Source: Chloroflexota bacterium | Lineage (GTDB): Bacteria > Chloroflexota > Anaerolineae > Anaerolineales > Villigracilaceae | Reading direction: 5' to 3' | Assembly: GCA_037440925.1 (NCBI GenBank) | Contig: JBBITF010000006.1 | Span: 1 to 64,000, forward strand | Length of the DNA: 64,000 bases | Shown: piece by piece, positions 16,454 through 43,196 of the stretch | How positions within the stretch are numbered: position 1 is the stretch's first letter | Layout of the letters: each line of letters opens with the position of its first letter | Made by a program: the position numbers and the translations under genes | Notes under the pieces: generated by a model | Seen by the model: the letters and a program-made list of their open reading frames with translations, nothing else | Told to the model about the DNA's origin: nothing | Databases searched by the model: none

Positions 16454-16617
16454 TTCCCATCACGGGGTTGTCCGCCAGCAGTGATCCTGCTGGCGTAATC
16501 ATTAGACCTTGTCGGAAATAACATGCAAGCATCGTTCCGAAGGCTGATTCATCTGACGGCAACCTTCGAGAGGTTTTTCCCCAGGCTGGCGCTTGAAAGA
16601 GAGAAAACCCGGCGCTG

Positions 16618-26866: not shown

Positions 26867-27454
26867 TTACGTCCCTTGTGAGTTGGCAGGCTCGGCAGCG
26901 GTTAACTGCTCCAGGCATTGTAAGGCAGTTTCCTTTTCGCCCGGCGACAGGATGGCATTCCCATCGAGCAGGGATTGAATGTGCGGTATGGCTGGGAGCA
27001 TTGCCTGCCGGGCGGTCTGCGCAACCCGGCCAATAGCCCACAGCGTCCCGGCGCGGAAGCGCGGCGCGTCCTCTTCCTCGAGGTCCAACAGGGAGATCAG
27101 CATGGGGAAGAATTGGTCGAATTGCGGGCAATGGTATAGAATTTCCCCAATCAGTTCGGGCGCTCGCCAGCCAATACCGCCCGATTCGTCGTTGACCAGC
27201 CAGAACAAACGCAGCAGGGTATTGCGAATGAATTCTGAGTCGCGCTCGGCAATGATTTTGGCGGCCAGGCCTGCGACCTCAATGGCGCGTTGGCTGACGG
27301 TGGCATCTTCATCATAGGTCAGCGCGGTCAATTGGCTTAGAATGTGCTTTTTGTGTTTGGCAAGGCTCAGGATGGCCTGGTATTGGCCTTCTAGCAGCCA
27401 TTGGCGGATGGTAGGCAGGTTCGCGGCGTGAGGTTCCATAGGAGGATGTGGCAC
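26867..27454 (-). CDS. HEAT/armadillo-like helical repeat protein, function unknown
   Basis: All-helical repeat pattern. Start is GTG 27454 or ATG 27439. A TATAAT on the - strand (27465-27460) lies only 6 nt upstream of the GTG, so the mRNA may be leaderless. Confidence 0.6.
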   Translation of the reverse strand: MPHPPMEPHAANLPTIRQWLLEGQYQAILSLAKHKKHILSQLTALTYDEDATVSQRAIEVAGLAAKIIAERDSEFIRNTLLRLFWLVNDESGGIGWRAPELIGEILYHCPQFDQFFPMLISLLDLEEEDAPRFRAGTLWAIGRVAQTARQAMLPAIPHIQSLLDGNAILSPGEKETALQCLEQLTAAEPANSQGT

Positions 27455-27558: not shown

Positions 27559-27969
27559 ATGACGAAGAAGATTGCTCAAAAAAGTAAGAAAACAACCTCT
27601 ATGGAGCGCCGTTCCCCGGCTCAGAATGTATTGCTTGCCCTTACTTTGGTGCCGTTGGTGATTGGTATCATCTTGGTTGGCGCCTGGGTGTTAGATTTAG
27701 AAGTGTTGGAGGATTCTCAGTCTCAGGTCATTGTCGGCGTCTTCTTTTTTCTTCTGGCTTTCACGGCATCCAATCTCATTCAAAAGCGTTGGCGGCTAGC
27801 GGCCGGGTGGGGGTTGCTGGCAGTGGCTGACCTTGTTACGCTGGGTTGGCTGAATCTGGCTGCTCAAATCGTGGCGCTGATGGCCGGCTTGTGTGGCGTT
27901 GTTTTGCTGGCTTTGGAGTTCTATCGGCAATATAAGTTGAACCAGGCTGGGCAGAAAAAGAGTAGATAA
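27559..27969 (+). CDS. Small membrane protein (about 4 TM), function unknown
   Basis: Lys-rich N-terminus followed by hydrophobic helices. GGAG lies 6 nt before the ATG. Confidence 0.55.
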   Translation: MTKKIAQKSKKTTSMERRSPAQNVLLALTLVPLVIGIILVGAWVLDLEVLEDSQSQVIVGVFFFLLAFTASNLIQKRWRLAAGWGLLAVADLVTLGWLNLAAQIVALMAGLCGVVLLALEFYRQYKLNQAGQKKSR

Positions 27970-28496: not shown

Positions 28497-29612
28497 ATGA
28501 CTACTACTGCTGCAAAACAAGAAAAGGCTGCCGGTTCGGGAGTATTGAACTTCCTGGTCGGTCTCGTGATCGTTGTGGTGCTGTCCTTCCTGGCACGCTG
28601 GTTCAAAGATCAGGTCTATGGAATCAAAGACCTTTTCGGCTGGGGCATTCCGGGTAAAGTGTTGGAATTCCCGCTCTGGGCTGCGCTGTTGGGTTTGATT
28701 TTCAATCCCATTCTGAAAGCGCTCAAGATCTATGAGTATGCCAAATCTGGCTTTCGCACCGAATTGTTCCTGAAGATTGGTCTGGTATTGCTCGGCGCAG
28801 GCATCAGTTTTAAGGTGATTGTCACCGCTGCGGCGGGCGCCATCATTCAGGGCATCATCATGGTCACTGCGGTGTACTTCTTCTCGTGGTGGCTAGGCGG
28901 TAAGTTTGGTCTGTCCGATTCCCTGCGCGCAGTTATGTCCACGGCTATTTCGATCTGCGGCGTCTCGGCTGCGATCGCTGCTGCTGGCTCAGTGTTGGCT
29001 AAGAAGGAAGAGATCACTTACGTGACCGCTCTCGTCATCATCACCGCGCTGCCTCTAATGGTGATTGCTCCGTTACTGGCAGGCGCAATGCACATGCCCG
29101 AGCCGGTAGCAGGCGCCTGGTTTGGCGGCAACGTAGATACGACGGCTGCAGTCGTGGGCGCAGGTACGATCTATGGCGAGACGGCTCAAAAGATCGCCAG
29201 TATCGTCAAGCAGACCCAGAATGCCTTGATTGGTGTGGTGGCCTTCCTGCTGGCGCTGTACTTCTCGACCGTGGTTGAAGGCAAGAAGGAAAAGCCCAGC
29301 GCCGCCATTATTTGGCAGCGCTTCCCCAAATTTGTGTTGGGTTTCATCATCACTTCGTTGCTTTTCACCTTTGCCGTGATCCCCGGACCCGGCAAAGACA
29401 CTCCTACGGCTGGCAACACAATTTCTAGCATGAAGGATTGGGCCTTCTGCCTGGCCTTTGTGTGCATGGGCCTGGAACTGTCGGTGAGCGGCCTCAAGAA
29501 GATGGGCTGGCCGCCGGTCATTGTATATCTCATCGTGACCGTGTTCAACACCCTGTTGGCCCTGGTGGTGTCTTGGCTGATCTTCGGCTGGTTATTCCCT
29601 GCAAGCCTGTAA
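28497..29612 (+). CDS. YeiH/UPF0324 (putative sulfate-exporter, PSE) family membrane transporter
   Basis: About 10-11 TM helices with the overall YeiH-like architecture. AGGAGG RBS. The family assignment comes from sequence style only. Confidence 0.7.
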   Translation: MTTTAAKQEKAAGSGVLNFLVGLVIVVVLSFLARWFKDQVYGIKDLFGWGIPGKVLEFPLWAALLGLIFNPILKALKIYEYAKSGFRTELFLKIGLVLLGAGISFKVIVTAAAGAIIQGIIMVTAVYFFSWWLGGKFGLSDSLRAVMSTAISICGVSAAIAAAGSVLAKKEEITYVTALVIITALPLMVIAPLLAGAMHMPEPVAGAWFGGNVDTTAAVVGAGTIYGETAQKIASIVKQTQNALIGVVAFLLALYFSTVVEGKKEKPSAAIIWQRFPKFVLGFIITSLLFTFAVIPGPGKDTPTAGNTISSMKDWAFCLAFVCMGLELSVSGLKKMGWPPVIVYLIVTVFNTLLALVVSWLIFGWLFPASL

Positions 29613-29668: not shown

Positions 29669-29699
29669 GAGGGGAAAGCAAAGAGCATGCTTTCCCCTC
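29669..29699 (+). other. Stem-loop in the transporter-dsrA spacer
   Basis: An 11-bp stem GAGGGGAAAGC/GCTTTCCCCTC with a 9-nt loop. No T-tract follows, so this is not a canonical terminator. It may be an mRNA processing or stability element. Confidence 0.35.
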
Positions 29700-29740: not shown

Positions 29741-30928
29741 ATGGCTAAGGACTCCAAAACCCCTATGCTGGATCAACTTGAAACAGGGCCCTGGCCGAGT
29801 TTTGTAAAAGAGATTAAGCGCGCTGCTGCCAAAAAAGACACAGCCAAGGATTTGCTGGGGCAGTTGGAGCGTTCTTATCGTGACAAAATCGGTCACTGGA
29901 AACATGGCGGTATCGTTGGCGTGAAGGGCTACGGCGGCGGCGTGATCGGGCGTTATTCCGACCTGCCAGAGGAATTCCCGTCTGTGGCTGAGTTTCACAC
30001 CTTGCGCGTCAATATGCCGGCCGGGTGGTTCTATACTACCGAGAAATTACGCCAATTATGTGATGTGTGGGACAAACATGGCAGCGGCCTGACCAACATG
30101 CACGGCGCCACCGGCGACATCATCCTGCTCGGCGCGCCCTCGGATGCGTTGCAGCCCTGCTTCGACGACTTGAGCGAAATTGACTTCGATTTGGGCGGTT
30201 CCGGCAGCGATATGCGCACGCCTTCCGCTTGTGTGGGACCTGCCCGCTGCGAGTATGCCTGCATCGATACCCTGGATATCCTTCGTGAGGTTACCCTGGA
30301 ATTCCAGGATGAGTTGCACCGCCCGATGTTCCCCTATAAATCCAAGATCAAGATTTCGGGCTGCCCGAACGATTGCGTGGCTTCGGTAGCGCGCTCGGAT
30401 TTCTCGGTCATTGGTACCTGGCGGGACAAAATCCTGATTGACCCTGCCGAGGTTGTCAATTATGCCAACAGCGGTCTGGATATCCAGGACGAAGTGGTCA
30501 ACCTTTGCCCGACGAACTGCATGAAATGGGATGCAGCCGCGAAGAAACTGAGCATCGATGACGCAGAATGCAACCGCTGTATGCACTGCATCAACCTGAT
30601 GCCTAAGGCGCTGCGCCCCGGCAAAGACAAGGGCGCGACCATCCTGGTCGGCGGCAAGGCCCCCATTGTGCATGGCGCGTTGATGTCTTGGGTGGTTGTT
30701 CCTTTCATGAAAATGGAGCCGCCATACGATGAACTGAAAGAATTCATCCGCAAGGCTTGGGAATGGTGGGACGAGAATGGCAAGATGCGCGAGCGCTTGG
30801 GTGAACTGATTCACCGCATGGGCATGCGTTCGTTCTTGAAAGCCATGGGCCTGCCGCCCGTGCCGCAGATGATTCGCACACCGCGTGCAAACCCCTATTA
30901 CTTCTGGGATCCTGAGGAGGTGAAATAA
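29741..30928 (+). CDS. dsrA: Dissimilatory sulfite reductase alpha subunit
   Basis: ORF 29687..30928. ATG 29741 lies behind GGAGG. DsrA-type N-terminus [18 protein letters not shown], sirohaem/FeS cysteines [11 protein letters not shown] and GCPNDCVAS, and a ferredoxin insert CPTNC...CNRCMHC. Confidence 0.95.
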
Positions 30929-31986
30929 TGGCCCGCACTGACTTTGGCCCTCCGAACTATAAAGACATGCTTCCGCCTGTCATTGCAAAGAACTATGGAC
31001 AGTGGAAGTATCACGAGCGTGTCAAACCAGGCGTTTTGAAGCATGTTGCCGAATCTGGCGATGAGTTGTATACCGTCCGCGTCGGTTCTTGCCGCCTGGT
31101 CAGCACCGACTGGATCCGCGATGTGTGCCAGATTGCCGACAAATATTGCGGCGGCCACCTGCGGTTTACCAGCCGCCACAACCTAGAGTTTCTGGTTTCT
31201 GACAAGAATCAGGTTGAACCTCTGCTGGCTCATCTCAAGCAAGAAGGCTACGCCGTAGGCGGCACCGGCCATGCCATCAGCAACCCGGTGCATACTCAGG
31301 GGTGGATTCACTGCCATACGCCCGCCACCGACGCCTCCGGCATTGTCAAGGCCGTGATGGACGATTTGTTCGAGTATTTCACAGATTGGAAGTTGCCGGC
31401 CTATTGCCGCATTTCTCTGGCTTGTTGTTTGAACATGTGCGGCGCGGTGCATTGCTCCGACATCGCCATCCTGGGTATCCATCGCAAGCCGCCGCACATC
31501 AATCACGATACGGTGCGCGCTAAATGCGAAATCCCCAACGTGATTGCGGCTTGTCCTACTGGCGCCATTCGTCCTGACCCCAAGGAAAAATCGCTGACGG
31601 TCAATGAAGAGAAGTGTATGTACTGTGGCAACTGCTATACCATGTGCCCGGGCATGCCGTTGGCCGATCCAGAGGGCGATGGCGTATCCATTTGGGTGGG
31701 CGGCAAGATTTCGAGCGCGCGCACAGCCCCCAAATTCTCTCGTCTGGTCATCCCTTACTTGCCCAACAATCCGCCGCGCTGGCCCGAAGTGACCGCGGCC
31801 GTGCGCAACATTGTTGAGACTTGGGCAAGCCATGCCCGCAAGCACGAGCGCATGGGCGAGTGGATTGACCGTATTGGTTGGGAACGATTCTTCGATCTGA
31901 CAGGCATTCCGTTCACTGTCCAACTCATTGACGACTTCACTCTGGCTACTGAAACCTTCCGGTCAACGCCTGCCTTCAAGTGGTAA
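30928..31986 (+). CDS. dsrB: Dissimilatory sulfite reductase beta subunit
   Basis: N-terminus TDFGPPNYKDMLPPVIAKNYGQWKYHE. Cysteine motifs are HCHTPATD, CCLNMCGAVHC, CPTGAI and CMYCGNCYTMCP. The start shares one base with the dsrA TAA. Confidence 0.95.
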   Translation: MARTDFGPPNYKDMLPPVIAKNYGQWKYHERVKPGVLKHVAESGDELYTVRVGSCRLVSTDWIRDVCQIADKYCGGHLRFTSRHNLEFLVSDKNQVEPLLAHLKQEGYAVGGTGHAISNPVHTQGWIHCHTPATDASGIVKAVMDDLFEYFTDWKLPAYCRISLACCLNMCGAVHCSDIAILGIHRKPPHINHDTVRAKCEIPNVIAACPTGAIRPDPKEKSLTVNEEKCMYCGNCYTMCPGMPLADPEGDGVSIWVGGKISSARTAPKFSRLVIPYLPNNPPRWPEVTAAVRNIVETWASHARKHERMGEWIDRIGWERFFDLTGIPFTVQLIDDFTLATETFRSTPAFKW

Positions 31987-31997
31987 AGAGGTGAAGC

Positions 31998-32207
31998 ATG
32001 AGCGACGAAGTGACGGAGGAACTGAAGAATCAAATCGTTGAATTCTTCAAACAAAAAGGGAAGATGATGACCCATCGTGATGTTGCCAAAGGCCTTGACC
32101 TGGATCAAAAACTGGTCAAGAAGGCGCTGACAGAATTAGTCAATGCCGGCACATTGGAATTTACTTCCTTTGGCGGCGCCACGTTCATCAAACTCCCCGG
32201 CACATGA
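31998..32207 (+). CDS. dsrD: DsrD (small winged-helix protein of reductive dsr operons)
   Basis: 69 aa, located directly after dsrB. KKALTELVNAGTLEFTSFGGATF matches the DsrD KKxLxxLVxxxxLE(Y/F) pattern. Confidence 0.85.
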   Translation: MSDEVTEELKNQIVEFFKQKGKMMTHRDVAKGLDLDQKLVKKALTELVNAGTLEFTSFGGATFIKLPGT

Positions 32208-32251
32208 CAGACCGAAGCGCTTTGTAAGATATTCTTTTTGAGGAGGTAGAT

Positions 32252-32569
32252 ATGCCTGTAGTCGAACTGAATGGGATACAGGTAAGTGTGGACGAGGATG
32301 GTTTCATTGAAGACCCTTCCGTATGGAATGAGGAATTGGCGGCTGCCATTGCCAAAACCGAGGAAGTCAATGAATTGACCGAGGATCATTGGAAGGTAGT
32401 CAAGTATCTGCGGGAATATTACCTGCAATTTGGCATTGCGCCCATGATCCGTAAACTCTGCAAAGAGACCGGTTACGACCTCAAAACCATTTACGAGTTA
32501 TTTCCAAGCGGTCCAGCCAAAGGCGCCTGCAAGATTGCTGGCTTGCCCAAGCCCACTGGCTGCGTCTAG
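32252..32569 (+). CDS. dsrC: DsrC (TusE/DsrC/DsvC family) with both C-terminal arm cysteines
   Basis: The C-terminus GACKIAGLPKPTGCV has the two conserved Cys residues 10 residues apart. GAGGAGG RBS. Confidence 0.95.
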   Translation: MPVVELNGIQVSVDEDGFIEDPSVWNEELAAAIAKTEEVNELTEDHWKVVKYLREYYLQFGIAPMIRKLCKETGYDLKTIYELFPSGPAKGACKIAGLPKPTGCV

Positions 32570-32602
32570 TCCGTTTAGCGCGAGGTTACATTCTCCACAC
32601 TG

Positions 32603-32668
32603 GGGATAGGGGGGAGCAGATGTGCAAATCAGCCGTCTTCCTGCCCCCTATCCCTTGTTGTTTCTTTG
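32603..32668 (+). terminator. Possible attenuator or partial intrinsic terminator between dsrC and dsrM
   Basis: An 11-bp stem GGGATAGGGGG/CCCCCTATCCC plus CAG/CTG is followed by TTGTTGTTTCTTT. It sits in the only gap over 100 nt inside the array. Confidence 0.45.
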
Positions 32669-32675
32669 AGGCACT

Positions 32676-33422
32676 ATGAGCACAAGCGATATTTTGTGGA
32701 CCCTGCTTTCCCTCTTTTTCATTGGTCTGGCTTATTTTGCAGCCTTTTCTTTCGTGGCAGGTTTGCTGTGGAAATTCTACGGTTACTTGCGCACTCCCAT
32801 GCCTTTACCTCATGCTGTGACACCTGCTCCTAAGACAGAAGGGGGAGCCGTCTTACGCGTGTTAGGAGATGTCACCCTCTTCTCCAACCTGTTCAAAGCC
32901 GATAAATGGTTGTGGGGAGGTGCGTGGCTCTTCCATGTTGCCTTGGCTGCGGTTTTATTCCGTCACTTGCGTTATTTTACTTACCCCGTGCCTGGACTGG
33001 TCCTATACATGGAATCGGTGGCGCTATTCTTTGGCAGTTTGCTGGGGGCGGCTGCCTTGTTCCTGTTTTGGCGGCGGCTGGCTTTGCCGCGCACACTCTA
33101 TATTTCTAATATCCCCGATTATTTTGCCCTGGCTTTGTTGGGCGTGATTGCCGGCAGTGGCCTGATGGTGAATTACTGGTTGCGCGTCAATATCGTAGAT
33201 GTCAAAGGCTTTATTTTGGGATTGATGACTTTCCATCCTGTCGAAGTACCTCATCATCCCTTGTTCCTCTTGCATTTACTGGCCGTCCTGATTTTGATGA
33301 TTTACTTCCCTTTCAGCAAGTTGCTCCATGCAGGCGGTCTGATTTTCAGCCCCTCGCGTCATCAGCCTTTTCAGGTGCAGGTGCGCGGCAAGCGTTATAT
33401 CAATCCAGTTGACCGTTATTGA
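32676..33422 (+). CDS. dsrM: DsrM (NarI/HdrE-like dihaem b membrane subunit)
   Basis: Five to six TM helices with conserved His residues (LFHVA, FRHLRY, PHHPLFLLH, LLHAGG). It lies immediately upstream of dsrK. Confidence 0.85.
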   Translation: MSTSDILWTLLSLFFIGLAYFAAFSFVAGLLWKFYGYLRTPMPLPHAVTPAPKTEGGAVLRVLGDVTLFSNLFKADKWLWGGAWLFHVALAAVLFRHLRYFTYPVPGLVLYMESVALFFGSLLGAAALFLFWRRLALPRTLYISNIPDYFALALLGVIAGSGLMVNYWLRVNIVDVKGFILGLMTFHPVEVPHHPLFLLHLLAVLILMIYFPFSKLLHAGGLIFSPSRHQPFQVQVRGKRYINPVDRY

Positions 33423-33433
33423 GAGAATAACCT

Positions 33434-34879
33434 ATGTCGAAATTCGATGAGACTCCGATTGTCAAAGACCCGGCAGTAAATGGCGTCTTGCGCCCGCCCA
33501 AACTCCGCGAACACGCTTCGGCAGAGGTGCAGTGTTATCCGAGCAAGCCCAAAGATACTTCGGCCATTGATTTGCCGACCGAATTGGTGCCGGATTGGAA
33601 AGAGCGTGCCATTGCCAGATTGGGCGAGTTGTTGGAAAAGAACCAGGCCTTGCGCGTCTACATGGACATCTGTGTGCGCTGCGGCGCCTGCACCGACAAA
33701 TGCCAGTTCTTCCTGGGGACGGGCGACCCGCAGAACTTCCCGGTGGCGCGCGCGGAACTGCTGCGAAAAGTCTATCGCCGCTACTTTACGCCGGCCGGTC
33801 TCTTCCCAGACCTGGGAGAGGCCGCCGATTTAGACGAAGAGATGCTCCAGAAGTGGTACACCTACTTCTACCAATGCTCCGAATGCCGCCGCTGTTCGGT
33901 CTTTTGCCCGTATGGCATAGATACTGCCGAAATTACCATTGCCGCGCGCGAGATCATGGCCTCGATTGGTGTCTCGACCAAATACATCACGGAAGTTGTG
34001 GCAAAGGTCTATGCTACTGGCAACAATCTGGGCATTCCGCCGGCTGCCTGGAAGGACAACTGCGAATTTCTCGAAGAGGATGTGCAGGCGGATACCGGCC
34101 TGCCTATCCGCTTCCCAGTCGATGAGAAAGGCGCCGAAGTTCTGCTGGTGCCGCCCTCGGCCGATAACTTTGCCAATACTGACACCATGATTGGCTATGG
34201 CAAACTCTTCCATTTCTTGGGCGTCAGTTGGACAACCAGCACCTACTGTAATGAAGGCGGTAACTTTGGCCTGTTCTTGAATTTTGCCAACTTGAAAAAA
34301 GTCAACCGCCGCATTCTGGATGCCGCCCGCGAATTGGGCGTCAAGACCATTATCTGGGGTGAGTGTGGACATGCCTGGCGGGCAGGCATTATGACGCCTT
34401 CGCTCAATGGCCCGATGGATGATTTCGATCCGCCTTATCCGTACCATATTAGCCAGTATATCGTTGACATGCTGCACAAAGGCGCTTTCGAGGGCCACAT
34501 AGACAAGTCGGCCAATGACCAGTATCTTGTCACCTATCATGACCCGTGCAATTCTGCGCGCGCGGGCTACCTCATCGAAGAACCGCGTGAGATCATCCGC
34601 GCCGTTTGTAACCGCTTTGTCGAAATGCCAGAAGGCACCATCCGCGAAAAGACTTTTTGCTGCGGCGCAGGCAACGGCCTGTTGACGGATGAGATTATGC
34701 CCATCCGCATGGCGGGCGGCAAACCGCGCGCCATGGCCGTCAAGCACACCGGCGCCAATTACCTGGCCACTGTATGTGCAATTTGCAAGGCGCAATTGCC
34801 CGAATCCATGCACTATTGGCAGGTGCCGGTCAAGGTGGGTGGCGTGATTGACTTGCTGGCGAACGCTCTCAAATTCTAG
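33434..34879 (+). CDS. dsrK: DsrK (HdrD-like Fe-S / CCG-domain catalytic subunit)
   Basis: Motifs: CVRCGACTDKC, CSECRRCSVFCPYGID, CGHAWR, HDPCNSAR, FCCGAGNG, CAICKAQL. Confidence 0.9.
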   Translation: MSKFDETPIVKDPAVNGVLRPPKLREHASAEVQCYPSKPKDTSAIDLPTELVPDWKERAIARLGELLEKNQALRVYMDICVRCGACTDKCQFFLGTGDPQNFPVARAELLRKVYRRYFTPAGLFPDLGEAADLDEEMLQKWYTYFYQCSECRRCSVFCPYGIDTAEITIAAREIMASIGVSTKYITEVVAKVYATGNNLGIPPAAWKDNCEFLEEDVQADTGLPIRFPVDEKGAEVLLVPPSADNFANTDTMIGYGKLFHFLGVSWTTSTYCNEGGNFGLFLNFANLKKVNRRILDAARELGVKTIIWGECGHAWRAGIMTPSLNGPMDDFDPPYPYHISQYIVDMLHKGAFEGHIDKSANDQYLVTYHDPCNSARAGYLIEEPREIIRAVCNRFVEMPEGTIREKTFCCGAGNGLLTDEIMPIRMAGGKPRAMAVKHTGANYLATVCAICKAQLPESMHYWQVPVKVGGVIDLLANALKF

Positions 34880-34894: not shown

Positions 34895-35197
34895 ATGCGC
34901 AAAGTAGCCTTGTCTCTCGTTGTATTCGGAATTCTGCTCTTGACGGTCCTCTTTTATCCGCGCTATGTGGAGAAACCCGTCAAGGACGGTGAAGGGCCGT
35001 TGGCGATTTACCTTGACCCCAGCCTGCCGGCGCCTGAATATCACAGCCCCTTAGACTGGTGGAAACGGAATCACAAGACGATCGTCAATCGCGGCGACCT
35101 GGACAGGCGCGATTGCCTGCAATGCCATGACCCGGCCACCTCTTGCAACAATTGTCACGCTTATGTGGGCGCGGCTGAGATTGTCGTTGCCCCCTAA
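34895..35197 (+). CDS. Membrane-anchored dihaem cytochrome c (occupies the dsrJ position but is not a trihaem DsrJ)
   Basis: N-terminal TM helix VALSLVVFGILLLTVLF and two CxxCH motifs (CLQCH, CNNCH). ATG 34895 lies behind GGAG; the track ORF begins at TTG 34883. Confidence 0.75.
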   Translation: MRKVALSLVVFGILLLTVLFYPRYVEKPVKDGEGPLAIYLDPSLPAPEYHSPLDWWKRNHKTIVNRGDLDRRDCLQCHDPATSCNNCHAYVGAAEIVVAP

Positions 35198-35659
35198 ATG
35201 GTGAGCGCTATGACGGATACTTCTGTTTCCTCTCCTAAACCTTCCATTTTCTCCCGCCGCCGCCAGTTTATTCAACTGGGCTTCTTGACGGTGGCAGCCG
35301 CCTGGCTGGGAACATGGCTGCAAGCGCGTCTCTTCCCGGCCGCCAGCGCCAGCCAGGAAGCTGCGCCGGTCTCTTTTCCATTGAGCGACTTGCCGGTTGG
35401 CGGAGCCAAAGCCATTACGTATGGCGGCATTCCTGTATTGGTATTGCGCACCCCGCAGAGTCTCCGCGCCTTCTCGTTGATTTGCACGCACCTGGGCTGT
35501 ATTGTGGAATGGCAAGATAACAAGAAGGAATTTTATTGCCCTTGTCACGATGGCCGCTATGATGAATTTGGCGATGTGTTGGCCGGCCCCCCGCCCATTC
35601 CGTTGGAGCAATTTGCCGTGCGCATCGAGGGCGAACAAGTCATCGTCGGCGAGGCTTGA
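35198..35659 (+). CDS. Tat-exported Rieske [2Fe-2S] protein
   Basis: Twin-arginine motif SRRRQFIQLG plus a hydrophobic anchor. Rieske boxes are CTHLGC and CPCHDGRY. Its ATG abuts the stop of the upstream gene. Confidence 0.9.
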   Translation: MVSAMTDTSVSSPKPSIFSRRRQFIQLGFLTVAAAWLGTWLQARLFPAASASQEAAPVSFPLSDLPVGGAKAITYGGIPVLVLRTPQSLRAFSLICTHLGCIVEWQDNKKEFYCPCHDGRYDEFGDVLAGPPPIPLEQFAVRIEGEQVIVGEA

Positions 35660-35674
35660 GGCAGGAGAATGAAC

Positions 35675-36049
35675 ATGAAACGTTTTCTAATTTTCTTCGG
35701 TTCACTGCTTGTGACTGTGGCGTTGCTGTTGGCCCTCTTGCCCGCTGCTACGGCCCAAGCCCTTCCCGAATATTCAGCGCAGACCGGGGAACCCTGCGCC
35801 TCTTGTCACATCAGCCCCTCGGGCGGCGGCCCCCGCGGCCCGCGCGGGCAGGCCTGGGTAGCCTCCGGCAAACCCGGCGCCGTGCCGGATACGCTCCAGG
35901 CGCTCGAATTGCTGGGCGTCGAATTGAGCGTGGATCCGGCCTATTTTACGGCAACAGGTTTCGAGGTCCAGGAACCGGAAGCGCTGCAGGTCGCTCCGGC
36001 CCAGAGCGTGCGCTTGTACCGTTGGTTGAGTCAATATGATGGCAATTAG
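35675..36049 (+). CDS. Secreted monohaem cytochrome c
   Basis: Sec signal peptide (LLALLPAATAQA) and a single CASCH. AGGAG lies 8 nt before ATG 35675; the alternative start is ATG 35669. Confidence 0.75.
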   Translation: MKRFLIFFGSLLVTVALLLALLPAATAQALPEYSAQTGEPCASCHISPSGGGPRGPRGQAWVASGKPGAVPDTLQALELLGVELSVDPAYFTATGFEVQEPEALQVAPAQSVRLYRWLSQYDGN

Positions 36050-36080: not shown

Positions 36081-38450
36081 ATGGAAAACTTCCCCTCTCA
36101 GACTCCTCCCTCAGAACTTTCCCGTCGTGATTTCATCAAATTTGGCGCCGCTGCCGCCATCGCCGGCGTTGGACTGAACGCTTTGCAGCCAGCGCAGCAG
36201 GCTACCTCGGTGCAAGCGGCGGTGGGTGAAGAGACGATTGTTAAAACGACATGCGCCTTGTGCCCCTCAGGCTGCGGCCTGGATGTGCGCGTGGTGAACG
36301 GCAAGGCGGTGAAAGTGGAAGGCAACCCGCTGCACCCGCTCAACCAGGGCGTATGCTGCCTGCGGGGACAGACCTCGTTGGAGGTGCTGTATAGCCCAGA
36401 GCGCATCCAACGCCCGCGCGTCCAGATGGGCGAGCGCGGTTCGGGCGATTGGAAAGAAATCTCGTGGGACGAGGCGCTTGAACTGGCGGCTGGCAAACTC
36501 GGTGAACTGCGCGCCGCTGGAAAGCCTCATAGCGTTGCGCTCATGCATGGCGAACTGCGCGGGCAAATGCGCCAGACGGTGCAGCGTTTCATGCGCGCCT
36601 ATGGCTCGCCGAATGTCATTTCGCGCGAGAGTTTGGGCGAAGGCGCGGCCCGTATGGCTTTATGGCTTTCACAAGGCGTAAACGCGCTGCCGGTCTACGA
36701 CATCAACAACGCCAATTATGTGTTGACCTTTGGGGGCAACCTGCTCGAATCCAGCCGCAACTTGATTGGCTATCTGGGCGCGACGGCTTTCATGCGGCGC
36801 GGACGCCCACAGCGCGGCAAACTGGTGGCCGTCCACCCGCGCCTTTCTCTGACCGGCATCAAGGCCGACGAGTGGGTGCCAATCCGCCCTGGCACGTATG
36901 GCGCGCTGGCTTTGGGCATGGCCAATGTCATCATCAACAGCAAACTATATGACGAAGCCTTCGTGCGCGACTTTACCTTTGGCTTCGAGGATTTCGAGGA
37001 CGCCGAGGGGACGTTGCACAAAGGCTTCAAGTCGCTGGTGTTGGAAACCTATACCCTCGAGCGCGTCTCGGCTATTACGGGCGTCTCTACCGATAAGATT
37101 GCCCGCATTGCGGGCGAATTTGCCACCAACCGCCCGGCGGTCGCCATGCTGCCCACCGAGGCGGGCGAACTCTCTAGCGGCAATGCGCTGTACACGGCGC
37201 TGGCCGTCCATGCCTTGAATGCCCTGGTTGGCTCGATAGACGTCAAGGGCGGCGTCCTCTTGCAGCGCTTCCCTAAATTGGCCGACTGGCCTGACTACAC
37301 CCTCGATGCGACAGCCCGCCTGGGAGAAAGCCGCGAGCGCATAGACGGGGCCGGCTCCCAATTCCCCTTGGCGCTATCGGCCTATCAGAATGTGCCAGAG
37401 CGCATCCTGGAGGGCAAGCCTTACCCCATCGAGGCCCTCTTCTTGCTGAACGCCAACCCGCTCTACGACCTGCCCAATGGCGGGCGTACCCTGGAAGCCT
37501 TGCAAAAAGTACCTTTTGTGGTCAGTTTTGCCTCCACCCTCGACGAAAGCGCGGCCTATGCCGACCTGATTTTGCCGGCCAGCACCTTCCTAGAAGTGTG
37601 GGGCGACGATTACCTGGAAGGCACGGGCTATGCGGGCATCTCCCTGCGCCAGCCGGCTGTTGCGCCGCTCCACGATACGCGCAATCCCGGCGACGTGCTG
37701 CTCGACCTGGCGCACCGCATCGGAGGTAATCTGGCAAAAGCCTTCCCCTGGGAAACCTACCAAGACCTGATCATGCAGCGCCTGTCTACCCTGGATTGGG
37801 AGAAATTGCAGGCCAACGGCAACTGGTCCGAACTGGTCTATTTCAACGCCCAACCCGGCAGCCCCGCCTGGAGCGAGGTGGTCGGACGTGACCGCTTGAA
37901 CGCTCCCAAAGATGGACGCTTCGACTTCTTCTCGCGCGAACTCTTCGCCCTGCTCGCTTCGGACTCGGACTTGGCCTGCTTGCCCCACTTCGAGATTCCC
38001 CCCGCCCTGGCCGACACTGCCGAGGGCGCCCTCGACTATCCTTTCCTGCTGGTCGTACAGCCGCTCATCACCCAGTCGCAGCAATGGCAAGGCATCGTCC
38101 CCACCTTGCAGGAGAGTTACGGCTTGCAAGGGCATGTCAAGTGGGACAGTTGGGTAGAAATCAGCCAGAAGGCAGCCGAAGCCCTCCACCTCGAGGATGG
38201 GCAGCGCGTGTGGGTAGAATCGCCGCTCGACCGCGTGCAGGCCACCGTTAGGGTATATGCTGGCATCTGGCCGAATGCCGTCTTCCTGCCGCCTGGACAG
38301 GGCCATCACACCTTTGTGCGCTGGGGCCGCAAATCTGAGCAGAACATGGTCGTCGGCGCCAACCCGAATGTTCTGAGTTTGTTTACGAGCGAGCCGTTGA
38401 GCGGACTGGCCGTAGCCGGCCCCACCCGCGTCCGTATTTATCCGGTTTGA
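36081..38450 (+). CDS. Tat-exported molybdopterin (Mo-bisPGD) oxidoreductase-family large subunit (PsrA/PhsA/QrcB/ActB1-like)
   Basis: Tat signal SRRDFIKFGAAAAIAG. The FS0 motif is CALCPSGC-x26-C(C)LRG. Length is 789 aa. FeS and NrfD subunits follow. Confidence 0.9.
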   Translation: MENFPSQTPPSELSRRDFIKFGAAAAIAGVGLNALQPAQQATSVQAAVGEETIVKTTCALCPSGCGLDVRVVNGKAVKVEGNPLHPLNQGVCCLRGQTSLEVLYSPERIQRPRVQMGERGSGDWKEISWDEALELAAGKLGELRAAGKPHSVALMHGELRGQMRQTVQRFMRAYGSPNVISRESLGEGAARMALWLSQGVNALPVYDINNANYVLTFGGNLLESSRNLIGYLGATAFMRRGRPQRGKLVAVHPRLSLTGIKADEWVPIRPGTYGALALGMANVIINSKLYDEAFVRDFTFGFEDFEDAEGTLHKGFKSLVLETYTLERVSAITGVSTDKIARIAGEFATNRPAVAMLPTEAGELSSGNALYTALAVHALNALVGSIDVKGGVLLQRFPKLADWPDYTLDATARLGESRERIDGAGSQFPLALSAYQNVPERILEGKPYPIEALFLLNANPLYDLPNGGRTLEALQKVPFVVSFASTLDESAAYADLILPASTFLEVWGDDYLEGTGYAGISLRQPAVAPLHDTRNPGDVLLDLAHRIGGNLAKAFPWETYQDLIMQRLSTLDWEKLQANGNWSELVYFNAQPGSPAWSEVVGRDRLNAPKDGRFDFFSRELFALLASDSDLACLPHFEIPPALADTAEGALDYPFLLVVQPLITQSQQWQGIVPTLQESYGLQGHVKWDSWVEISQKAAEALHLEDGQRVWVESPLDRVQATVRVYAGIWPNAVFLPPGQGHHTFVRWGRKSEQNMVVGANPNVLSLFTSEPLSGLAVAGPTRVRIYPV

Positions 38451-38477: not shown

Positions 38478-39164
38478 ATGCCCCGCTGGGGAATGGTCAT
38501 TGACCTGGACAAATGCTTTGCCTGCCAGAGCTGCACCGCAGCCTGCCGCATGGAAAACAACACGCCTGTGGCCGGAAAGAACCAGGCCGATATGGGGCGC
38601 GCCATCCTGTGGAACGAGGTCTTGCCGTTCATAGAAGGCGAGTATCCCAATATCCACACCACCATGTTGCCGCGCCCGTGTATGCACTGCGACAACCCAC
38701 CCTGCGTTAAAGTCTGCCCGGTGCAGGCGACTTACAAAAACGAAGAAGGCATCGTGCTGGTGAACTACGATCGCTGTATTGGCTGCCGCATGTGCACTGT
38801 GGCTTGCCCTTATGCCGTGCGTTACTTCAACTGGTACCCCCCCGAATGGCCCGAGGAACTGAAAGCGCACTTGAATCCAGAACCGGAAGTGCAGCCTCGT
38901 CCTAAAGGCGTGGTCGAAAAATGTACCTTCTGCTTCCAGCGTTTGCGCAAAGCGCGTGAAGAAGCCGATGCAGAAGGTCGTCCTTTCAACGCCACTGACT
39001 ACACCCCTGCCTGCGTGCAAACCTGCACCGGCCACGCCCGCTACTTTGGCGACCTGGATGACCCGAACAGCCTGGTCTCTAAACTGGCGCATAGCCCGCG
39101 CGCCTTCCGTATGTTCGAAGAACTTGGCACACAGCCCAAAGTCTATTACTTGAAGCAAGGGTGA
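38478..39164 (+). CDS. 4x[4Fe-4S] ferredoxin-type electron-transfer subunit (PsrB/DsrO/QrcC/ActB2-like)
   Basis: Four Cys clusters: CFACQSCTAAC, CMHCDNPPCVKVCP, CIGCRMCTVACP, CTFC...CVQTC. It has no signal peptide of its own, so it would need to be co-exported with the Tat subunit. GGAGG RBS. Confidence 0.9.
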   Translation: MPRWGMVIDLDKCFACQSCTAACRMENNTPVAGKNQADMGRAILWNEVLPFIEGEYPNIHTTMLPRPCMHCDNPPCVKVCPVQATYKNEEGIVLVNYDRCIGCRMCTVACPYAVRYFNWYPPEWPEELKAHLNPEPEVQPRPKGVVEKCTFCFQRLRKAREEADAEGRPFNATDYTPACVQTCTGHARYFGDLDDPNSLVSKLAHSPRAFRMFEELGTQPKVYYLKQG

Positions 39165-40515: not shown

Positions 40516-40704
40516 ATGAACATTGGCGGTTTGGTTCACGCATATTTCGACAATGCCGGCCCGGGCGGAGTCTTTGTCTTGCTGGTTGTCGGCGTTGCCT
40601 GCACTACCTACTACCTCCTGGCCCGCTGGTTCGTAGCCGGCGGTAGAACAGAGAGCCAGGCAGTTCCTTCTACCGATGAACAACCTGTGAGCATGGACGA
40701 ATGA
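40516..40704 (+). CDS. 62-aa single-TM protein (ActD-like position)
   Basis: AGGAGG RBS, one TM helix (VFVLLVVGVACTTYYLL), and a 4-nt ATGA overlap with the next gene. Confidence 0.55.
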   Translation: MNIGGLVHAYFDNAGPGGVFVLLVVGVACTTYYLLARWFVAGGRTESQAVPSTDEQPVSMDE

Positions 40705-42812: not shown

Positions 42813-43196
42813 ATGTTGAATGAATATACCGGTAAGCGCGTTCTTGTGATTGCCACCTTTGGTTCTGCTAACCCAGAGCGCGGCCCCGGTCCATTTGTCT
42901 TTGCCGGCGAAGCCGCCAGGGGCGGCGCTGAAGTCATGCTCATCTTTGTCTTGCAAGCGCCGCTGCTCCTCAAGCGGGGCGTTGCGGAGAAATTGTATGC
43001 CAAACAAGGCGGGCGTACCATCCGCGAATTCATTGATGATGCCCTGCGGCTTGGGGTAAAATGCTATGTGTGTGATACGGCGTTGCAACTTTGCGACATG
43101 ACGCCCGAAGACTTGATTGAAGAAGTGGACGAACTGGTCGGCCCCAGTTTCTTGATCAAACAAGGATTACAGGCTGATCTGGTTCTCTCTTTCTAA
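42813..43196 (+). CDS. DsrE/DsrF-like family protein
   Basis: 127 aa with a DsrE-fold pattern: KRVLVIATFGS..., central cysteines VKCYVCDTALQLC, and C-terminal FLIKQGLQADLVLSF. Confidence 0.65.
   Translation: MLNEYTGKRVLVIATFGSANPERGPGPFVFAGEAARGGAEVMLIFVLQAPLLLKRGVAEKLYAKQGGRTIREFIDDALRLGVKCYVCDTALQLCDMTPEDLIEEVDELVGPSFLIKQGLQADLVLSF

Follow-up and report, generated by a model that had tools for sequence, protein, structure and literature searches.

The dsr operon core

Profile searches of the open reading frames (ORFs) of the window (i.e., the whole 64-kb stretch of DNA that was analyzed) identified six contiguous dsr genes on the + strand at 29741-34879, just as the original prediction had placed them:

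29741-30928, + strand: dsrA, dissimilatory sulfite reductase alpha subunit of the reductive bacterial type (TIGR02064, 579 bits; cut-off 393)
30928-31986, + strand: dsrB, beta subunit (TIGR02066, 526 bits; cut-off 341)
31998-32207, + strand: dsrD (PF08679, 32.7 bits; cut-off 24.2)
32252-32569, + strand: dsrC, with both C-terminal arm cysteines (PF04358, 135 bits)
32676-33422, + strand: dsrM, dihaem cytochrome b-type membrane subunit of 248 aa (NF038037, 142 bits, under the equivalog cut-off of 300; PF02665, Nitrate_red_gam)
33434-34879, + strand: dsrK, catalytic FeS/CCG subunit (NF045796, 526 bits; cut-off 400)

Chance matches were excluded for this core by E-values of 1e-158 to 1e-174, and the top PDB match of DsrA was A. 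fulgidus DsrA (3mm5_A, 582 bits), with DsrB matching 3mm5_B (533 bits). The dsrA stop and dsrB start overlap by 1 nt, and both proteins keep the Cys motifs expected of the sirohaem/[4Fe-4S] site and the ferredoxin domain (in DsrA, C164-x5-C170 and C208-x3-C212). The two arm cysteines foreseen for DsrC proved to be Cys93 and Cys104, within ...GACKIAGLPKPTGCV. A protein 100% identical to DsrA is already in NCBI, and identities across the Chloroflexota-clade loci amount to 84-100% for DsrB and 66-100% for DsrD.

Reductive type and host lineage

In a neighbour-joining tree of DsrA (83 taxa, 100 bootstraps, archaeal types as outgroup), the protein fell within a 100%-bootstrap clade of Anaerolineales/Chloroflexota MAGs inside the reductive bacterial group. 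The oxidative reference (defined by its dsrABEFHCMKLJOPN gene context; 49% identity to DsrA) was located outside that group with 64% support. The clade unites twelve species-level Chloroflexota sequences in one group. Ca. Desulfolinea nitratireducens has the same locus, with a DsrA of 82% identity. Moreover, a Pfam/NCBIfam scan of the non-overlapping large ORFs (at least 80 aa) of the whole 64-kb window revealed neither a DsrEFH trio nor a DsrL-type protein, and the relatives are likewise without dsrEFH and dsrL (van Vliet 2020 Table S2; Diao 2023 Table S1). The presence of DsrD together with the absence of dsrEFH/dsrL points to sulfite reduction under the published rule (Anantharaman 2018, Table 2). 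Both the tree and this gene content bear out the reductive type that had been proposed.

The proposed Chloroflexota background was confirmed as well, since all named close matches of DsrA, of the Mo-like subunit described below and of the housekeeping protein CysS are Anaerolineales or Chloroflexota. As a marker for the contig, CysS (whose identity to Anaerolineales-named proteins is 76-80%) gives the same taxonomy as DsrA, and the 100% NCBI matches of both proteins appear to share one contig. Judged from its sequence, the locus is a genuine operon for dissimilatory sulfite reductase and belongs to an uncultured bacterium of the Anaerolineales (Chloroflexota). Many lateral transfers of dsrAB have been described, some of them into Chloroflexota (Anantharaman 2018, Diao 2023), and transposase genes flank the block in loci L003 and L004, which could fit a dsr locus foreign to its Chloroflexota genome, either mis-binned or acquired very recently from a classical sulfate-reducing lineage. 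Nevertheless, this explanation is already contradicted and we give it scarcely any credence: the same contig holds SecA, aconitase and the Anaerolineales-like CysS beside dsr, the upstream synteny from SecA to dsrA is preserved in locus L001, the GC3 of the dsr genes lies inside the range of the remaining window, and DsrA belongs to a single clade of Chloroflexota species.

Sulfate activation genes

The same Pfam/NCBIfam scan found no ATP sulfurylase (sat), AprA/AprB or Qmo (qmoABC) among the large ORFs of the 64-kb window, in line with the earlier claim that sat, aprAB and qmoABC are missing there. The inspected sequence is 64 kb of a genome, and in many sulfate reducers sat, aprAB and qmoABC are unlinked to dsr, which counts in favour of an ordinary sulfate reducer that carries these genes elsewhere; a lone sat gene, on the other hand, is common in assimilatory metabolism, which counts against it. 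While a sat match occurs in 3/4 Anaerolineae genomes (Diao 2023 Table S1), aprA, aprB, qmoA and qmoB were all scored 0 in 4/4 Anaerolineae dsrAB genomes of that study, and both aprA and aprB were 0 in the 93%-complete MAG of Ca. Desulfolinea nitratireducens, which has the same locus as the window. An ordinary sulfate reducer thus seems improbable. Together, the published zero scores for aprAB and qmoAB in Ca. Desulfolinea nitratireducens and in four additional dsrAB-carrying genomes of Anaerolineae (van Vliet 2020 Table S2; Diao 2023 Table S1) support the original prediction of possible sulfite rather than sulfate respiration. Ca. Desulfolinea is itself a predicted sulfite reducer (van Vliet 2020), and the sulfite-reducer inference for this lineage is sound but already published.

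An alternative complex III-like module downstream of dsrK

The operon does not end at dsrK, and extends well past the 29741-34879 interval originally considered. On the same strand, dsrK is followed by eight genes for cytochromes, a Rieske protein, subunits resembling those of alternative complex III (ACIII) and membrane proteins, and then by a DsrE-like gene, with intergenic gaps of at most 106 nt up to that gene:

34895..35197, + strand: membrane-anchored dihaem cytochrome c (CLQCH-x6-CNNCH)
35198..35659, + strand: Tat-exported Rieske [2Fe-2S] protein of the bc/b6f type (PF00355, 49 bits; TIGR01416 and PetC-type models)
35669..36049, + strand: secreted monohaem cytochrome c (CASCH), from reading of the sequence
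36081..38450, + strand: Tat-exported Mo/W-bisPGD-family subunit of 789 aa (PhsA, 336 bits, cut-off 694; QrcB, 293 bits, cut-off 440)
38478..39164, + strand: four-cluster FeS subunit, QrcC / DsrO / ActB-C-half-like (QrcC, 267 bits, cut-off 400; DsrO, 192 bits, cut-off 200)
39169..40497, + strand: NrfD-family integral membrane subunit, ActC-like (PF03916, 104 bits)
40516..40704, + strand: 63-aa single-pass membrane protein (reading frame)
40701..42791, + strand: protein of 696 aa that combines a signal peptide, a single CASCH haem motif and membrane helices with a long Ala-rich helical-repeat domain
42813..43196, + strand: stand-alone DsrE-family protein, with no DsrEFH trio (PF02635, 25.5 bits; PF13686, 28.3 bits)
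43464..44888, + strand: dsrN-type a,c-diamide synthase (TIGR00379, 445 bits; CbiA and GATase_3 domains)
44885..46015, + strand: radical SAM/SPASM protein (PF04055 and PF13186; TIGR04317-like, 125 bits, under cut-off)

The Rieske protein carries the motifs CTHLGC ... CPCHDG and the Tat motif SRRRQF, and its top PDB match was a b6f Rieske protein (8hn2_A, 80 bits; AioB, 36 bits). The top PDB match of the FeS subunit was residues 797-1023 of ACIII ActB (6f0k_B, 190 bits), and those of the NrfD subunit, which has about 9-10 hydrophobic segments and a presumed quinol site, were ACIII ActC proteins (6f0k_C, 217 bits; 6lod_C, 202; 6btm_C, 200). The 696-aa protein had no Pfam, NCBIfam or PDB match.

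The module is situated between dsrK and dsrN, in place of dsrJOP, in every related locus with enough flank, and its gene order is common to L001, L003-L005, L007-L011, L013, L014, L087, L089-L094 and other loci. Wherever MoB orthologues of at least 65% identity had enough flank, dsrK was located upstream. Across the clade, the dihaem cytochrome c (55-98% identity, in all loci) and the monohaem cytochrome c (48-93%) are conserved, the 63-aa protein is called and conserved in L001, L003 and L087 (tblastn matches of 42-97%), and the gene for the 696-aa protein is kept after the NrfD gene in L001, L003, L087, L088 and L089. The closest non-dsr homologues (35-46%) belong to clusters that combine a QrcA/ActA-like pentahaem protein with B, C and D subunits; because cytochrome c oxidase genes adjoin these clusters in both of the two loci inspected (L116 and L125; NCBIfam-confirmed in L116), they look like quinol:cytochrome c oxidoreductases. 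The module itself was probably derived from ACIII, judging by these similarities. Calisto & Pereira (2021) reported that DsrP groups with ActC/ActF, and published tables score dsrJOP as 0 for the relatives (van Vliet 2020 Table S2; Diao 2023 Table S1), yet no description of a Rieske/cytochrome c/ACIII-like module at the dsrJOP position was found in the literature.

The Mo-family subunit

Since PhsA was the top NCBIfam match of the 789-aa Mo-family protein (336 bits), with ArrA (240 bits) and PsrA (207 bits) among its PDB matches, this protein could together with the FeS and NrfD subunits constitute a working Phs/Psr/Ttr enzyme for thiosulfate, polysulfide or tetrathionate, coupling thiosulfate or polysulfide reduction to Dsr. 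Its Tat signal and complete set of FS0 [4Fe-4S] cysteines (invariant in 118 homologues) agree with this, as does a phsA score of 1 for one related genome (Diao 2023 Table S1). However, the PhsA score is far under the cut-off, and alignments revealed Gly where ArrA (6cz7) and PsrA (2vpw) have the Mo-ligand Cys. In the 118 homologues this ligand column varies freely (G96/A12/D6/N2/E1/H1) and is never Cys, Sec or Ser. Moreover, the FeS and NrfD partners are ACIII-like rather than PsrBC-like, and cofactor-less members of this Mo/W-bisPGD family are known, i.e., QrcB and ActB (Duarte 2018). A working Phs/Psr/Ttr enzyme is thus very improbable, and because the Mo-ligand Cys is missing, the PhsA-like gene lends no support to thiosulfate respiration. 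The subunit is similar to QrcB and to the N-terminal half of ActB, and probably not a Psr/Phs-type catalytic subunit.

DsrM, DsrK and the direction of electron flow

With its 248 aa, DsrM resembles the 245-aa DsrM of an oxidative-type locus, unlike the ~330-aa DsrM of DsrMKJOP sulfate reducers, and in the alignment it lacks the three insertions that long DsrM has, as well as both Arg of the long form's 'FRSLFRN'. The features marking DsrJOP-dependent DsrM (Yin et al. 2026 preprint) are missing, so that DsrM could oxidise quinol by itself. Its identity is 43% to the DsrM of oxidative-type locus L006 vs. 30-35% to those of most reductive loci; for DsrK the corresponding values are 50% and 42-48%. 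In the DsrK tree, the protein forms a separate 100% clade with that of the Phycisphaerae locus L024, outside typical reductive DsrK. By these comparisons, DsrM and DsrK depart from the usual reductive type, and the Chloroflexi Dsr system has indeed been called chimeric (Neukirchen 2023).

Our preferred reading, held with somewhat better than even confidence, is that of an Anaerolineales sulfite-reducing dsr operon in which an ACIII-like module replaces DsrJOP. The organism would most likely be without Sat-independent sulfate activation via AprAB/Qmo, like all sequenced relatives, and its electron acceptor would be sulfite, either imported or set free from other sulfur compounds. Together with DsrD, DsrAB would reduce sulfite onto DsrC, and the resulting DsrC trisulfide would be reduced by DsrK, which would receive its electrons through DsrM. 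The Yin et al. 2026 preprint places quinol oxidation in DsrMKJOP at DsrP, from where electrons pass via DsrO, DsrJ and DsrM to DsrK. In the module replacing DsrJOP, menaquinol may instead be oxidised at the ActC-like subunit with release of protons outside, after which electrons would pass from the FeS subunit via the cytochromes c and the Rieske protein to DsrM or, if the pathway runs oxidatively, to an outside acceptor.

Several observations run against this reading. Rieske centres of the bc type usually have a fairly high potential, and this agrees better with electrons leaving the quinol pool than with their delivery to DsrM. In loci L024 and L083, from two other phyla, homologues of the dihaem cytochrome (39-48%) and Rieske genes also follow dsrM/K, and are in turn followed by cytochrome b; this Rieske/cytochrome b complex suggests an oxidative or bidirectional link. 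Finally, DsrM is without the marks of dependence on DsrJOP, and both DsrM and DsrK are more like the oxidative-type proteins than like the usual reductive ones. Reductive-type Dsr with DsrD can also work in disproportionation or oxidation, as in Desulfurivibrio alkaliphilus and cable bacteria, where reductive-type DsrAB and DsrD operate in the oxidative or disproportionating direction. The Dsr pathway might thus be mainly oxidative or disproportionating, with electrons from sulfide or sulfur entering menaquinone via DsrMK and leaving via the Rieske/ACIII-like module to cytochrome c and on to O2, nitrate, nitrite or another acceptor of high potential. Besides the position of DsrK outside the typical reductive clade and the chimeric nature of the system, the quinol-oxidising character of bc-type Rieske proteins and ACIII-derived modules, the cytochrome c oxidase genes beside the non-dsr clusters and the lone DsrE-like gene would all fit this alternative. 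Ca. Desulfolinea is moreover an abundant organism of suboxic water that 'may oxidize sulfide' (van Vliet 2020), and genome features alone cannot tell disproportionators from sulfite reducers (Anantharaman 2018). We nevertheless regard a mainly oxidative or disproportionating role as a serious but rather unlikely alternative: DsrAB is clearly reductive in type and accompanied by DsrD, dsrEFH and dsrL (which typify Dsr-based sulfur oxidisers) occur neither in the window nor in the relatives, and the 64-kb window encodes neither a terminal oxidase nor a nitrate reductase.

Flanking genes

Upstream of dsrA, the following features were identified:

26867..27454, - strand: DVU0298-family (HEAT-like) protein (NF045662, 118 bits; cut-off 75)
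27559..27969, + strand: small membrane protein, conserved upstream of the dsr block
28497..29612, + strand: YeiH/PF03601 family transporter ('putative sulfate exporter' family; PF03601, 147 bits)
29669..29699: hairpin (12-bp stem) in the gap that separates dsrA from the transporter gene (terminator-like scan)

The hairpin is possibly a terminator or regulatory element; overall, terminator-like sites are no more numerous in the region than in shuffled sequences. All loci of the Chloroflexota clade that have flank carry the YeiH-like transporter gene directly 5' of dsrA (57-93% identity), and its product is a candidate sulfur-oxyanion carrier. The small membrane protein, without family match in the Pfam/NCBIfam scans, is 92% identical in L001 and 51-58% in L003, L008 and L009.

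At the other end, the DsrE-family ORF matches the genuine DsrE of L006 with only E = 0.007, and its gene is present in L089, L092, L094 and L099 but absent from L087. The dsrN-type protein, a candidate sirohaem amidase, is 41-51% identical to the product of a gene adjoining dsrAB in many other phyla, and its gene follows the module in L087, L088 and L089. The start of the radical SAM gene overlaps the dsrN stop, and the encoded protein, possibly a maturase, is 84% identical in L089 and has a homologue beside a DVU0298-like gene in L005. The DVU0298-family protein recurs beside the relatives' dsr loci (82% identity in L001, 67% in L003 and 49% in L005), and weakly similar homologues precede dsrA in L043 and L050.

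A reductive-type dsr core without sulfate activation genes in the window

The original prediction held that the window carries six contiguous dsr genes on one strand, and both the ORF list of the 27–40 kb region and the family models recovered these genes at exactly the predicted coordinates:

29741–30928, + strand: dsrA (TIGR02064, 579 bits; cut-off 393)
30928–31986, + strand: dsrB (TIGR02066, 526 bits; cut-off 341)
31998–32207, + strand: dsrD (PF08679, 32.7 bits; cut-off 24.2)
32252–32569, + strand: dsrC (PF04358, 135 bits)
32676–33422, + strand: dsrM (NF038037, 142 bits; cut-off 300; NarI-type by Pfam)
33434–34879, + strand: dsrK (NF045796, 526 bits; cut-off 400)

DsrA and DsrB both pass their equivalog cut-offs and carry the cysteine motifs of the sirohaem-[4Fe-4S] site and the ferredoxin domain, i.e., C164-x5-C170, C208-x3-C212, C256-x3-C260 and C277-x2-C280-x2-C283 (DsrA) and C160-x5-C166, C167-x3-C171 and C230-x2-C233-x2-C236 (DsrB). 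The nearest solved structures are the reductive enzymes of Archaeoglobus fulgidus (582 bits for DsrA and 533 bits for DsrB), followed by those of Desulfovibrio and Desulfomicrobium. DsrC indeed has both arm cysteines (i.e., Cys93 and Cys104, in the C-terminal arm of a 105-aa protein ending in PTGCV), which makes it a functional-type DsrC by the two-cysteine criterion, as opposed to TusE or RspA.

DsrK scores above its equivalog cut-off, and DsrM is a short form that falls below its own. The question of DsrM-1 versus DsrM-2 was approached by sequence alignment together with the text of the Yin 2026 preprint. The window DsrM measures 248 aa, compared to 245 aa for the oxidative-type DsrM and ca. 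330 aa for the DsrM of DsrMKJOP organisms, and in the alignment it lacks the three insertions of long DsrM as well as two arginines of the 'FRSLFRN' motif; as a PDB query, it returned no match. In the DsrK tree, the Chloroflexota sequences and that of a Phycisphaerae MAG (L024) form a separate clade with 100% support outside the typical reductive DsrK, with the oxidative reference branching between the two. This DsrM/DsrK picture agrees with the Chloroflexi Dsr system having been termed chimeric (Neukirchen 2023).

The predicted reductive type of DsrAB was examined in a neighbour-joining (i.e., distance-based) tree of DsrA with 83 taxa, 383 columns, 100 bootstraps and one oxidative reference. 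Since nearly all DsrA sequences collapse into a few clusters, the 50%-identity representative library was too coarse for this tree, and it supplied the archaeal outgroups and the oxidative reference P0141, a 50%-cluster representative chosen by its gene context (dsrA-B-E-F-H-C-M-K-L-J-O-P-N, locus L006). Scanning a single genome for each GTDB species provided the best 80 labelled loci, and the tree contains a single oxidative reference since all of these were of the reductive type; no phage-borne oxidative rdsrA was found in the viral contigs scanned for additional references. Among the best 80 loci, the closest came from Anaerolineales, Chloroflexota, Anaerolineaceae and Caldilineaceae MAGs (79–87% identity), followed by Smithella, Syntrophaceae, Desulfomonilia, Desulfotomaculum, Acidobacteriota, Zixibacteria and others (57–70%).

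The window DsrA fell in a clade of 12 Chloroflexota sequences (100% support) nested in the reductive bacterial group, and not with the oxidative rDsr sequence, which was placed outside the reductive group at 64% bootstrap in this tree with its single oxidative reference; four archaeal-type sequences formed the outgroup with 100% support. Its identity amounts to 49–51% with the oxidative reference and 62–70% with reductive sequences, and the placement matches the published one of Chloroflexota DsrAB (Diao 2023). As also predicted, dsrD is present, while neither the dsrEFH trio nor a DsrL-type protein occurs in the window (which has a lone DsrE-like ORF), and dsrEFH and dsrL are likewise scored 0 in the genome tables of relatives. 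The underlying rule, i.e., DsrD present with dsrEFH and dsrL absent, stems from Anantharaman 2018, who also warn that disproportionators are indistinguishable from sulfite reducers.

The predicted absence of sat, aprAB and qmoABC from the 64 kb was confirmed by comparing a non-overlapping choice of ORFs of at least 80 aa across the window with Pfam and/or NCBIfam, which revealed no ATP sulfurylase, AprA/AprB, Qmo, DsrEFH trio or DsrL-type protein among the large ORFs. The canonical Sat-AprAB-QmoABC plus Dsr set is therefore not found within the 64 kb, and aprAB and qmoAB are also absent in relatives. In fact, the proposed use of sulfite rather than sulfate is supported, and already in print for close relatives, because their published gene tables show the same pattern.

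In this regard, the DsrA of Candidatus Desulfolinea nitratireducens NIOZ-UU36 (P0044; GTDB Anaerolineales, family envOPS12, 93% complete according to van Vliet 2020) is 82% identical to the window DsrA. The gene table in the van Vliet 2020 supplements scores dsrA, dsrB, dsrC, dsrD, dsrK and dsrM as 1, and aprA, aprB, dsrE/F/H, dsrJ, dsrL, dsrO and dsrP as 0; the same supplements predict Ca. Desulfolinea to reduce sulfite, tetrathionate and nitrate, and state that it 'may oxidize sulfide'. Similarly, four Anaerolineae dsrAB genomes have aprAB, qmoAB, dsrEFH, dsrL and dsrJOP all at 0 (Diao 2023 Table S1), and the main text of that paper describes Chloroflexota as encoding DsrD and lacking DsrL. 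The window thus has the same dsr complement as Ca. Desulfolinea and the Diao 2023 Anaerolineae (dsrABCD, dsrK and dsrM present; aprAB, dsrEFH, dsrL and dsrJOP absent). The contigs with the exact P0044 protein (L003 and L004) also carry the same locus in the same gene order (YeiH-like gene, dsrABDC-MK, then cytochrome, Rieske, Mo-like, FeS and NrfD genes), but they belong to a different species and their upstream neighbourhood differs. More specifically, their dsr block is preceded by HTH_Tnp_4 and DDE_Tnp_1 transposase-related genes, an AbiEii gene and an FGE-sulfatase gene (L003 3780–6416 and L004 2058–6155), and this difference from the window suggests that the dsr block is mobile or rearranged among relatives.

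The finding in the window is therefore real, correctly read and already known in kind: it represents another species of the Anaerolineales dsr lineage, with a public sequence. Published accounts of this lineage (Chloroflexota/Anaerolineales that have reductive DsrAB together with DsrD and DsrMK but no Apr/Qmo) go back to 2016–2023, and the known distribution of sulfite reduction is unchanged by the window.

Host assignment of the contig

The Chloroflexota background that had been proposed is supported by genes other than dsr, because the cysteinyl-tRNA synthetase, the upstream synteny and the GC3 values concur. The cysteinyl-tRNA synthetase (59617–61059) has a 100% match in NCBI, on a contig as long (81,817 bp) as the one with the identical DsrA, and all of its named relatives (76–80% identity) are Anaerolineales or Chloroflexota. 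A related contig (L001) retains the upstream order SecA, aconitase, Band 7 gene and dsrA, and the GC3 of the dsr genes (0.57–0.69) lies within the range of the remaining window, with no compositional island at the dsr locus by GC or GC3. For DsrA itself, a 100% identical sequence exists in NCBI and a 95% relative in assembly GCA_034431895.1. Mis-binning is not a concern.

An eight-gene module follows dsrK

The dsr operon proved to be much longer than the predicted 29741–34879. On its upstream side, dsrA is preceded by a – strand gene for a DVU0298-family protein, the gene of a small membrane protein and, as its direct neighbour, a YeiH/PF03601 transporter gene. A perfect hairpin with a 12-bp stem lies at 29669–29699 (GAGGGGAAAGCA...TGCTTTCCCCTC), within the 128 nt that separate dsrA from the YeiH-like gene. 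Downstream, dsrK is followed on the same strand, with gaps of at most 31 nt, by eight genes (hereafter the module):

34895–35197, + strand: membrane-anchored dihaem cytochrome c
35198–35659, + strand: Tat-exported Rieske protein (CTHLGC and CPCH boxes)
35669–36049, + strand: monohaem cytochrome c
36081–38450, + strand: Tat-exported 789-aa molybdopterin-family (Mo-like) protein, top NCBIfam match PhsA
38478–39164, + strand: four-cluster FeS protein resembling the C-terminal half of ActB
39169–40497, + strand: NrfD-family protein of 442 aa, ActC-like
after the NrfD gene, + strand: 63-aa membrane protein
after the 63-aa gene, + strand: 696-aa protein (signal peptide, a single CXXCH motif, membrane helices, Ala-rich repeats)

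Beyond the module lie a DsrE-family ORF, a dsrN-type amidase gene and a radical SAM/SPASM gene. The promoter/terminator scan marked no operon boundaries, and terminator-like sites are at least as common after shuffling. As a PDB query, the 696-aa protein returned no match. The DVU0298-family HEAT-like gene (26867–27454, – strand) and the radical SAM/SPASM gene (44885–46015, + strand) recur near dsr loci, being adjacent in a relative's locus (L005, 5715–7472), whereas in the window one lies at each end of the locus; their products may form a putative maturation pair.

The Mo-like subunit lacks a molybdenum ligand

The Mo-like subunit aligns best with ArrA and PsrA, but where these two have their Mo-ligand cysteine (ArrA, HSSVCAEA; PsrA, SLCTAP), the window protein has Gly186 (RESLGEGA). 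Across 118 Mo-like homologues this column reads G96/A12/D6/N2/E1/H1, and never Cys, Sec or Ser, while the four cysteines of the FS0 cluster are invariant. Cofactor-less Mo-like subunits have precedents in QrcB and ActB (Duarte 2018). Given the glycine at the ligand column and these precedents, a reading of the gene as a thiosulfate/polysulfide reductase (PhsA, 336 bits; cut-off 694) was dropped, and the protein lacks the Cys or Sec ligand of Psr/Phs/Ttr/Arr-type enzymes in general. Since it is without the ligand cysteine, such a PhsA-like gene beside dsr should not be counted as a thiosulfate/polysulfide reductase in gene-presence surveys.

An arsenite-oxidase-like complex, which would likewise combine a ligand-less Mo subunit with a Rieske protein, was not retained either: the Rieske protein is of the bc/b6f type (80 bits vs. 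36 bits for that of arsenite oxidase, AioB), the AioA model gives the large subunit only 27 bits, and the partner subunits are ACIII-like. No cytochrome b gene was found in the window.

The module differs from known membrane complexes

When compared to DsrMKJOP of Archaeoglobus fulgidus and Nitratidesulfovibrio vulgaris (Barbosa 2023 and Yin 2026 preprints), the window shares an equivalog-level DsrK, and a periplasm-side FeS protein, an NrfD protein of the 10-helix class and c-type cytochromes come right after dsrMK (cf. DsrO, DsrP and DsrJ). However, the trihaem DsrJ is missing, the FeS and NrfD proteins score 192 vs. 200 (DsrO) and 107 vs. 350 (DsrP), Mo-like, Rieske and monohaem cytochrome subunits are added, and DsrM is the short form without insertions. 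DsrJ, DsrO and DsrP are thus not present in the window, just as dsrJOP is scored 0 in its relatives.

A second point of comparison is alternative complex III (ACIII; 6f0k, 6btm, 6lod and 8k9e). The best solved relatives of the NrfD subunit are ActC proteins, at 217 (6f0k_C), 202, 200 and 182 bits, and the FeS subunit is nearest to the C-terminal half of ActB (190 bits); moreover, the Mo-like subunit is without Mo ligand, as is the N-terminal half of ActB, and a monohaem cytochrome c is present. Unlike in ACIII, ActB is split into two genes and its Mo-like part retains the FS0 cysteines, the pentahaem ActA and a second NrfD (ActF) are missing (the module has a single NrfD gene), a Rieske protein and a dihaem cytochrome occur in addition, and the whole is embedded in a dsr operon.

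In the menaquinone reductase QrcABCD of Desulfobacterota, which is linked with sulfur respiration, B (cofactor-less Mo-like), C (FeS) and D (NrfD) are likewise separate subunits, and QrcB and QrcC are among the best NCBIfam matches of the window subunits. Nevertheless, these matches remain below the equivalog cut-offs (293 vs. 440 for QrcB and 267 vs. 400 for QrcC), there is no QrcD match and no hexahaem QrcA, a Rieske protein is present, and neither a periplasmic hydrogenase nor a formate dehydrogenase context is apparent in the 64 kb. Desulfotomaculum-type Gram-positive reducers and the window organism are expected to have a monoderm cell plan in common. These DsrMK-only reducers of sulfate and sulfite also lack canonical dsrJOP and have a short NarI-like DsrM without the occluding features of the DsrM of DsrMKJOP (Yin 2026), but DsrMK of the window clade is always followed by the eight-gene module, and its DsrK belongs to a separate clade in common with Phycisphaerae.

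Conservation and possible origin of the module

In a tblastn matrix of 86 loci, dsrMK is followed by the cytochrome-Rieske-cytochrome-Mo-like-FeS-NrfD series in all loci of the Chloroflexota clade whose flank is long enough, and in none of the other phyla. In one such relative (L087, Mo-like subunit 68% identical), the module is likewise located between dsrK and dsrN. An independent metagenome scan, for which the Mo-like subunit served as query, agreed: wherever an orthologue was at least 65% identical and the sequence reached far enough upstream, it was preceded by the Rieske gene, both cytochrome genes and dsrK, and no orthologue without dsr was found. The window locus as a whole has a 92%-identical counterpart (L089, FWWM01002306.1) in the same metagenome assembly (FWWM01; GCA_900175145.1) as the classical oxidative dsrABEFHCMKLJOPN cluster of L006 (FWWM01009902.1), and both Dsr types therefore co-occur in that sample.

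The next Mo-like homologues (35–46% identity) also have Gly at the ligand column and lie in clusters of a pentahaem cytochrome with B, C and D subunits, which look like ACIII/Qrc-type quinol:cytochrome c oxidoreductases. In the two loci inspected (L116 and L125), these clusters directly follow cytochrome c oxidase genes, identified by NCBIfam in L116 as CoxA (676 bits), CoxB (185 bits) and haem o synthase. Both loci (L116 4693–14893 and L125 2542–12188) encode members of a large family of Mo-like proteins without ligand cysteine (motif LGNPARGSEGILK) and with the FS0 cysteines kept, which together with the pentahaem cytochrome, FeS and NrfD proteins correspond to a split-ActB form of ACIII/Qrc. 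Since the nearest homologues outside dsr loci form such clusters, the dsr-linked module looks as if derived from an ACIII/Qrc-type complex, in which the pentahaem cytochrome would have been replaced by the Rieske protein and small cytochromes.

Homologues of the dihaem cytochrome (39–48%) and the Rieske protein (33–40%) also follow dsrM/dsrK in L024 and in L083 of Ca. Tariuqbacter, where cytochrome b genes come next (L083, an N-terminal part that is b6-like; L024, a part with the PEWY motif). A Rieske/cytochrome b complex is hence encoded inside the dsr cluster in both loci (L024 14843–17754; Ca. Tariuqbacter arcticus L083 7162–11255). It seems that the dsrMK-dihaem-Rieske block was passed between phyla in one piece, accompanied by cytochrome b in Phycisphaerae and Ca. 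Tariuqbacter.

How the system may work

According to the Barbosa 2023 and Yin 2026 preprints, DsrAB and DsrC turn sulfite into a DsrC trisulfide that is reduced by DsrK, and in DsrMKJOP menaquinol is oxidised at DsrP, with electrons passing from DsrO via DsrJ and DsrM to DsrK and protons being released on the outside. Within the NrfD family, DsrP clusters with ActC/ActF (Calisto & Pereira 2021). In the window clade, the ActC-like, FeS and cytochrome subunits could take over the roles of DsrP, DsrO and DsrJ, respectively, and sulfite reduction is the most likely physiology and a reasonably probable one. The Rieske protein does not fit well with this replacement of JOP. A Rieske centre of the bc type is usually too positive in potential for electron delivery towards DsrM.

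Because of this misfit, and because the cytochrome b versions in other phyla point to quinol oxidation with a higher-potential acceptor, the main rival explanation is that the system runs oxidatively or both ways, as demonstrated for Desulfurivibrio alkaliphilus (cited in Anantharaman 2018). We regard a mainly oxidative or disproportionating use as rather unlikely, and retain sulfite reduction as the preferred reading.

With regard to the membrane complex, we tentatively propose, at somewhat less than even confidence, that DsrMK is wired to an undescribed module, i.e., a split-ActB ACIII with Rieske protein and dihaem and monohaem cytochromes in place of the pentahaem cytochrome, which sits between dsrK and dsrN and replaces dsrJOP. 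The searchable texts of the published descriptions, which give gene presence only, do not mention a Rieske/ACIII-like module, and no description was found among open-access papers, although one may exist elsewhere. If true, this would constitute a new type of Dsr membrane complex, and the module could link DsrC chemistry to a higher-potential respiratory branch and might make the pathway reversible. The role of DsrJOP, including what organisms gain from it over DsrMK alone, is under active study (Yin et al. 2026), and the presence of a conserved Rieske/ACIII-like module where other organisms have dsrJOP, i.e., a natural swap of JOP for another quinol-oxidising module, bears on what DsrJOP adds to DsrMK.

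Other features of the window

The sole RNA gene found in the window is a tRNA-Arg(CCG) at 16381–16454, after which an unusually long SecA of 1324 aa with all four SecA domains is encoded (16645–20619). The regions 195–8582 and 62500–63729 contain a fatty-acid beta-oxidation-type set consisting of a family III CoA-transferase, 3-hydroxyacyl-CoA dehydrogenase, acyl-CoA dehydrogenases and two thiolase-like genes with an OB-fold partner, which may represent an electron-donor pathway.

Finally, a second membrane redox complex is encoded by four genes on the – strand (49015–53726):

52350–53726, – strand: DsrK/HmcF-like CCG protein (DsrK model, 291 bits, below cut-off)
51610–52314, – strand: HmcE-like membrane protein
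50822–51613, – strand: HmcB-like FeS protein
49015–50820, – strand: HmcC-like NrfD protein, its fused C-terminal domain bearing six CXXCH motifs

This complex resembles a compact Hmc, or the 'DsrOhPhCyt' type of cable bacteria (Yin 2026).
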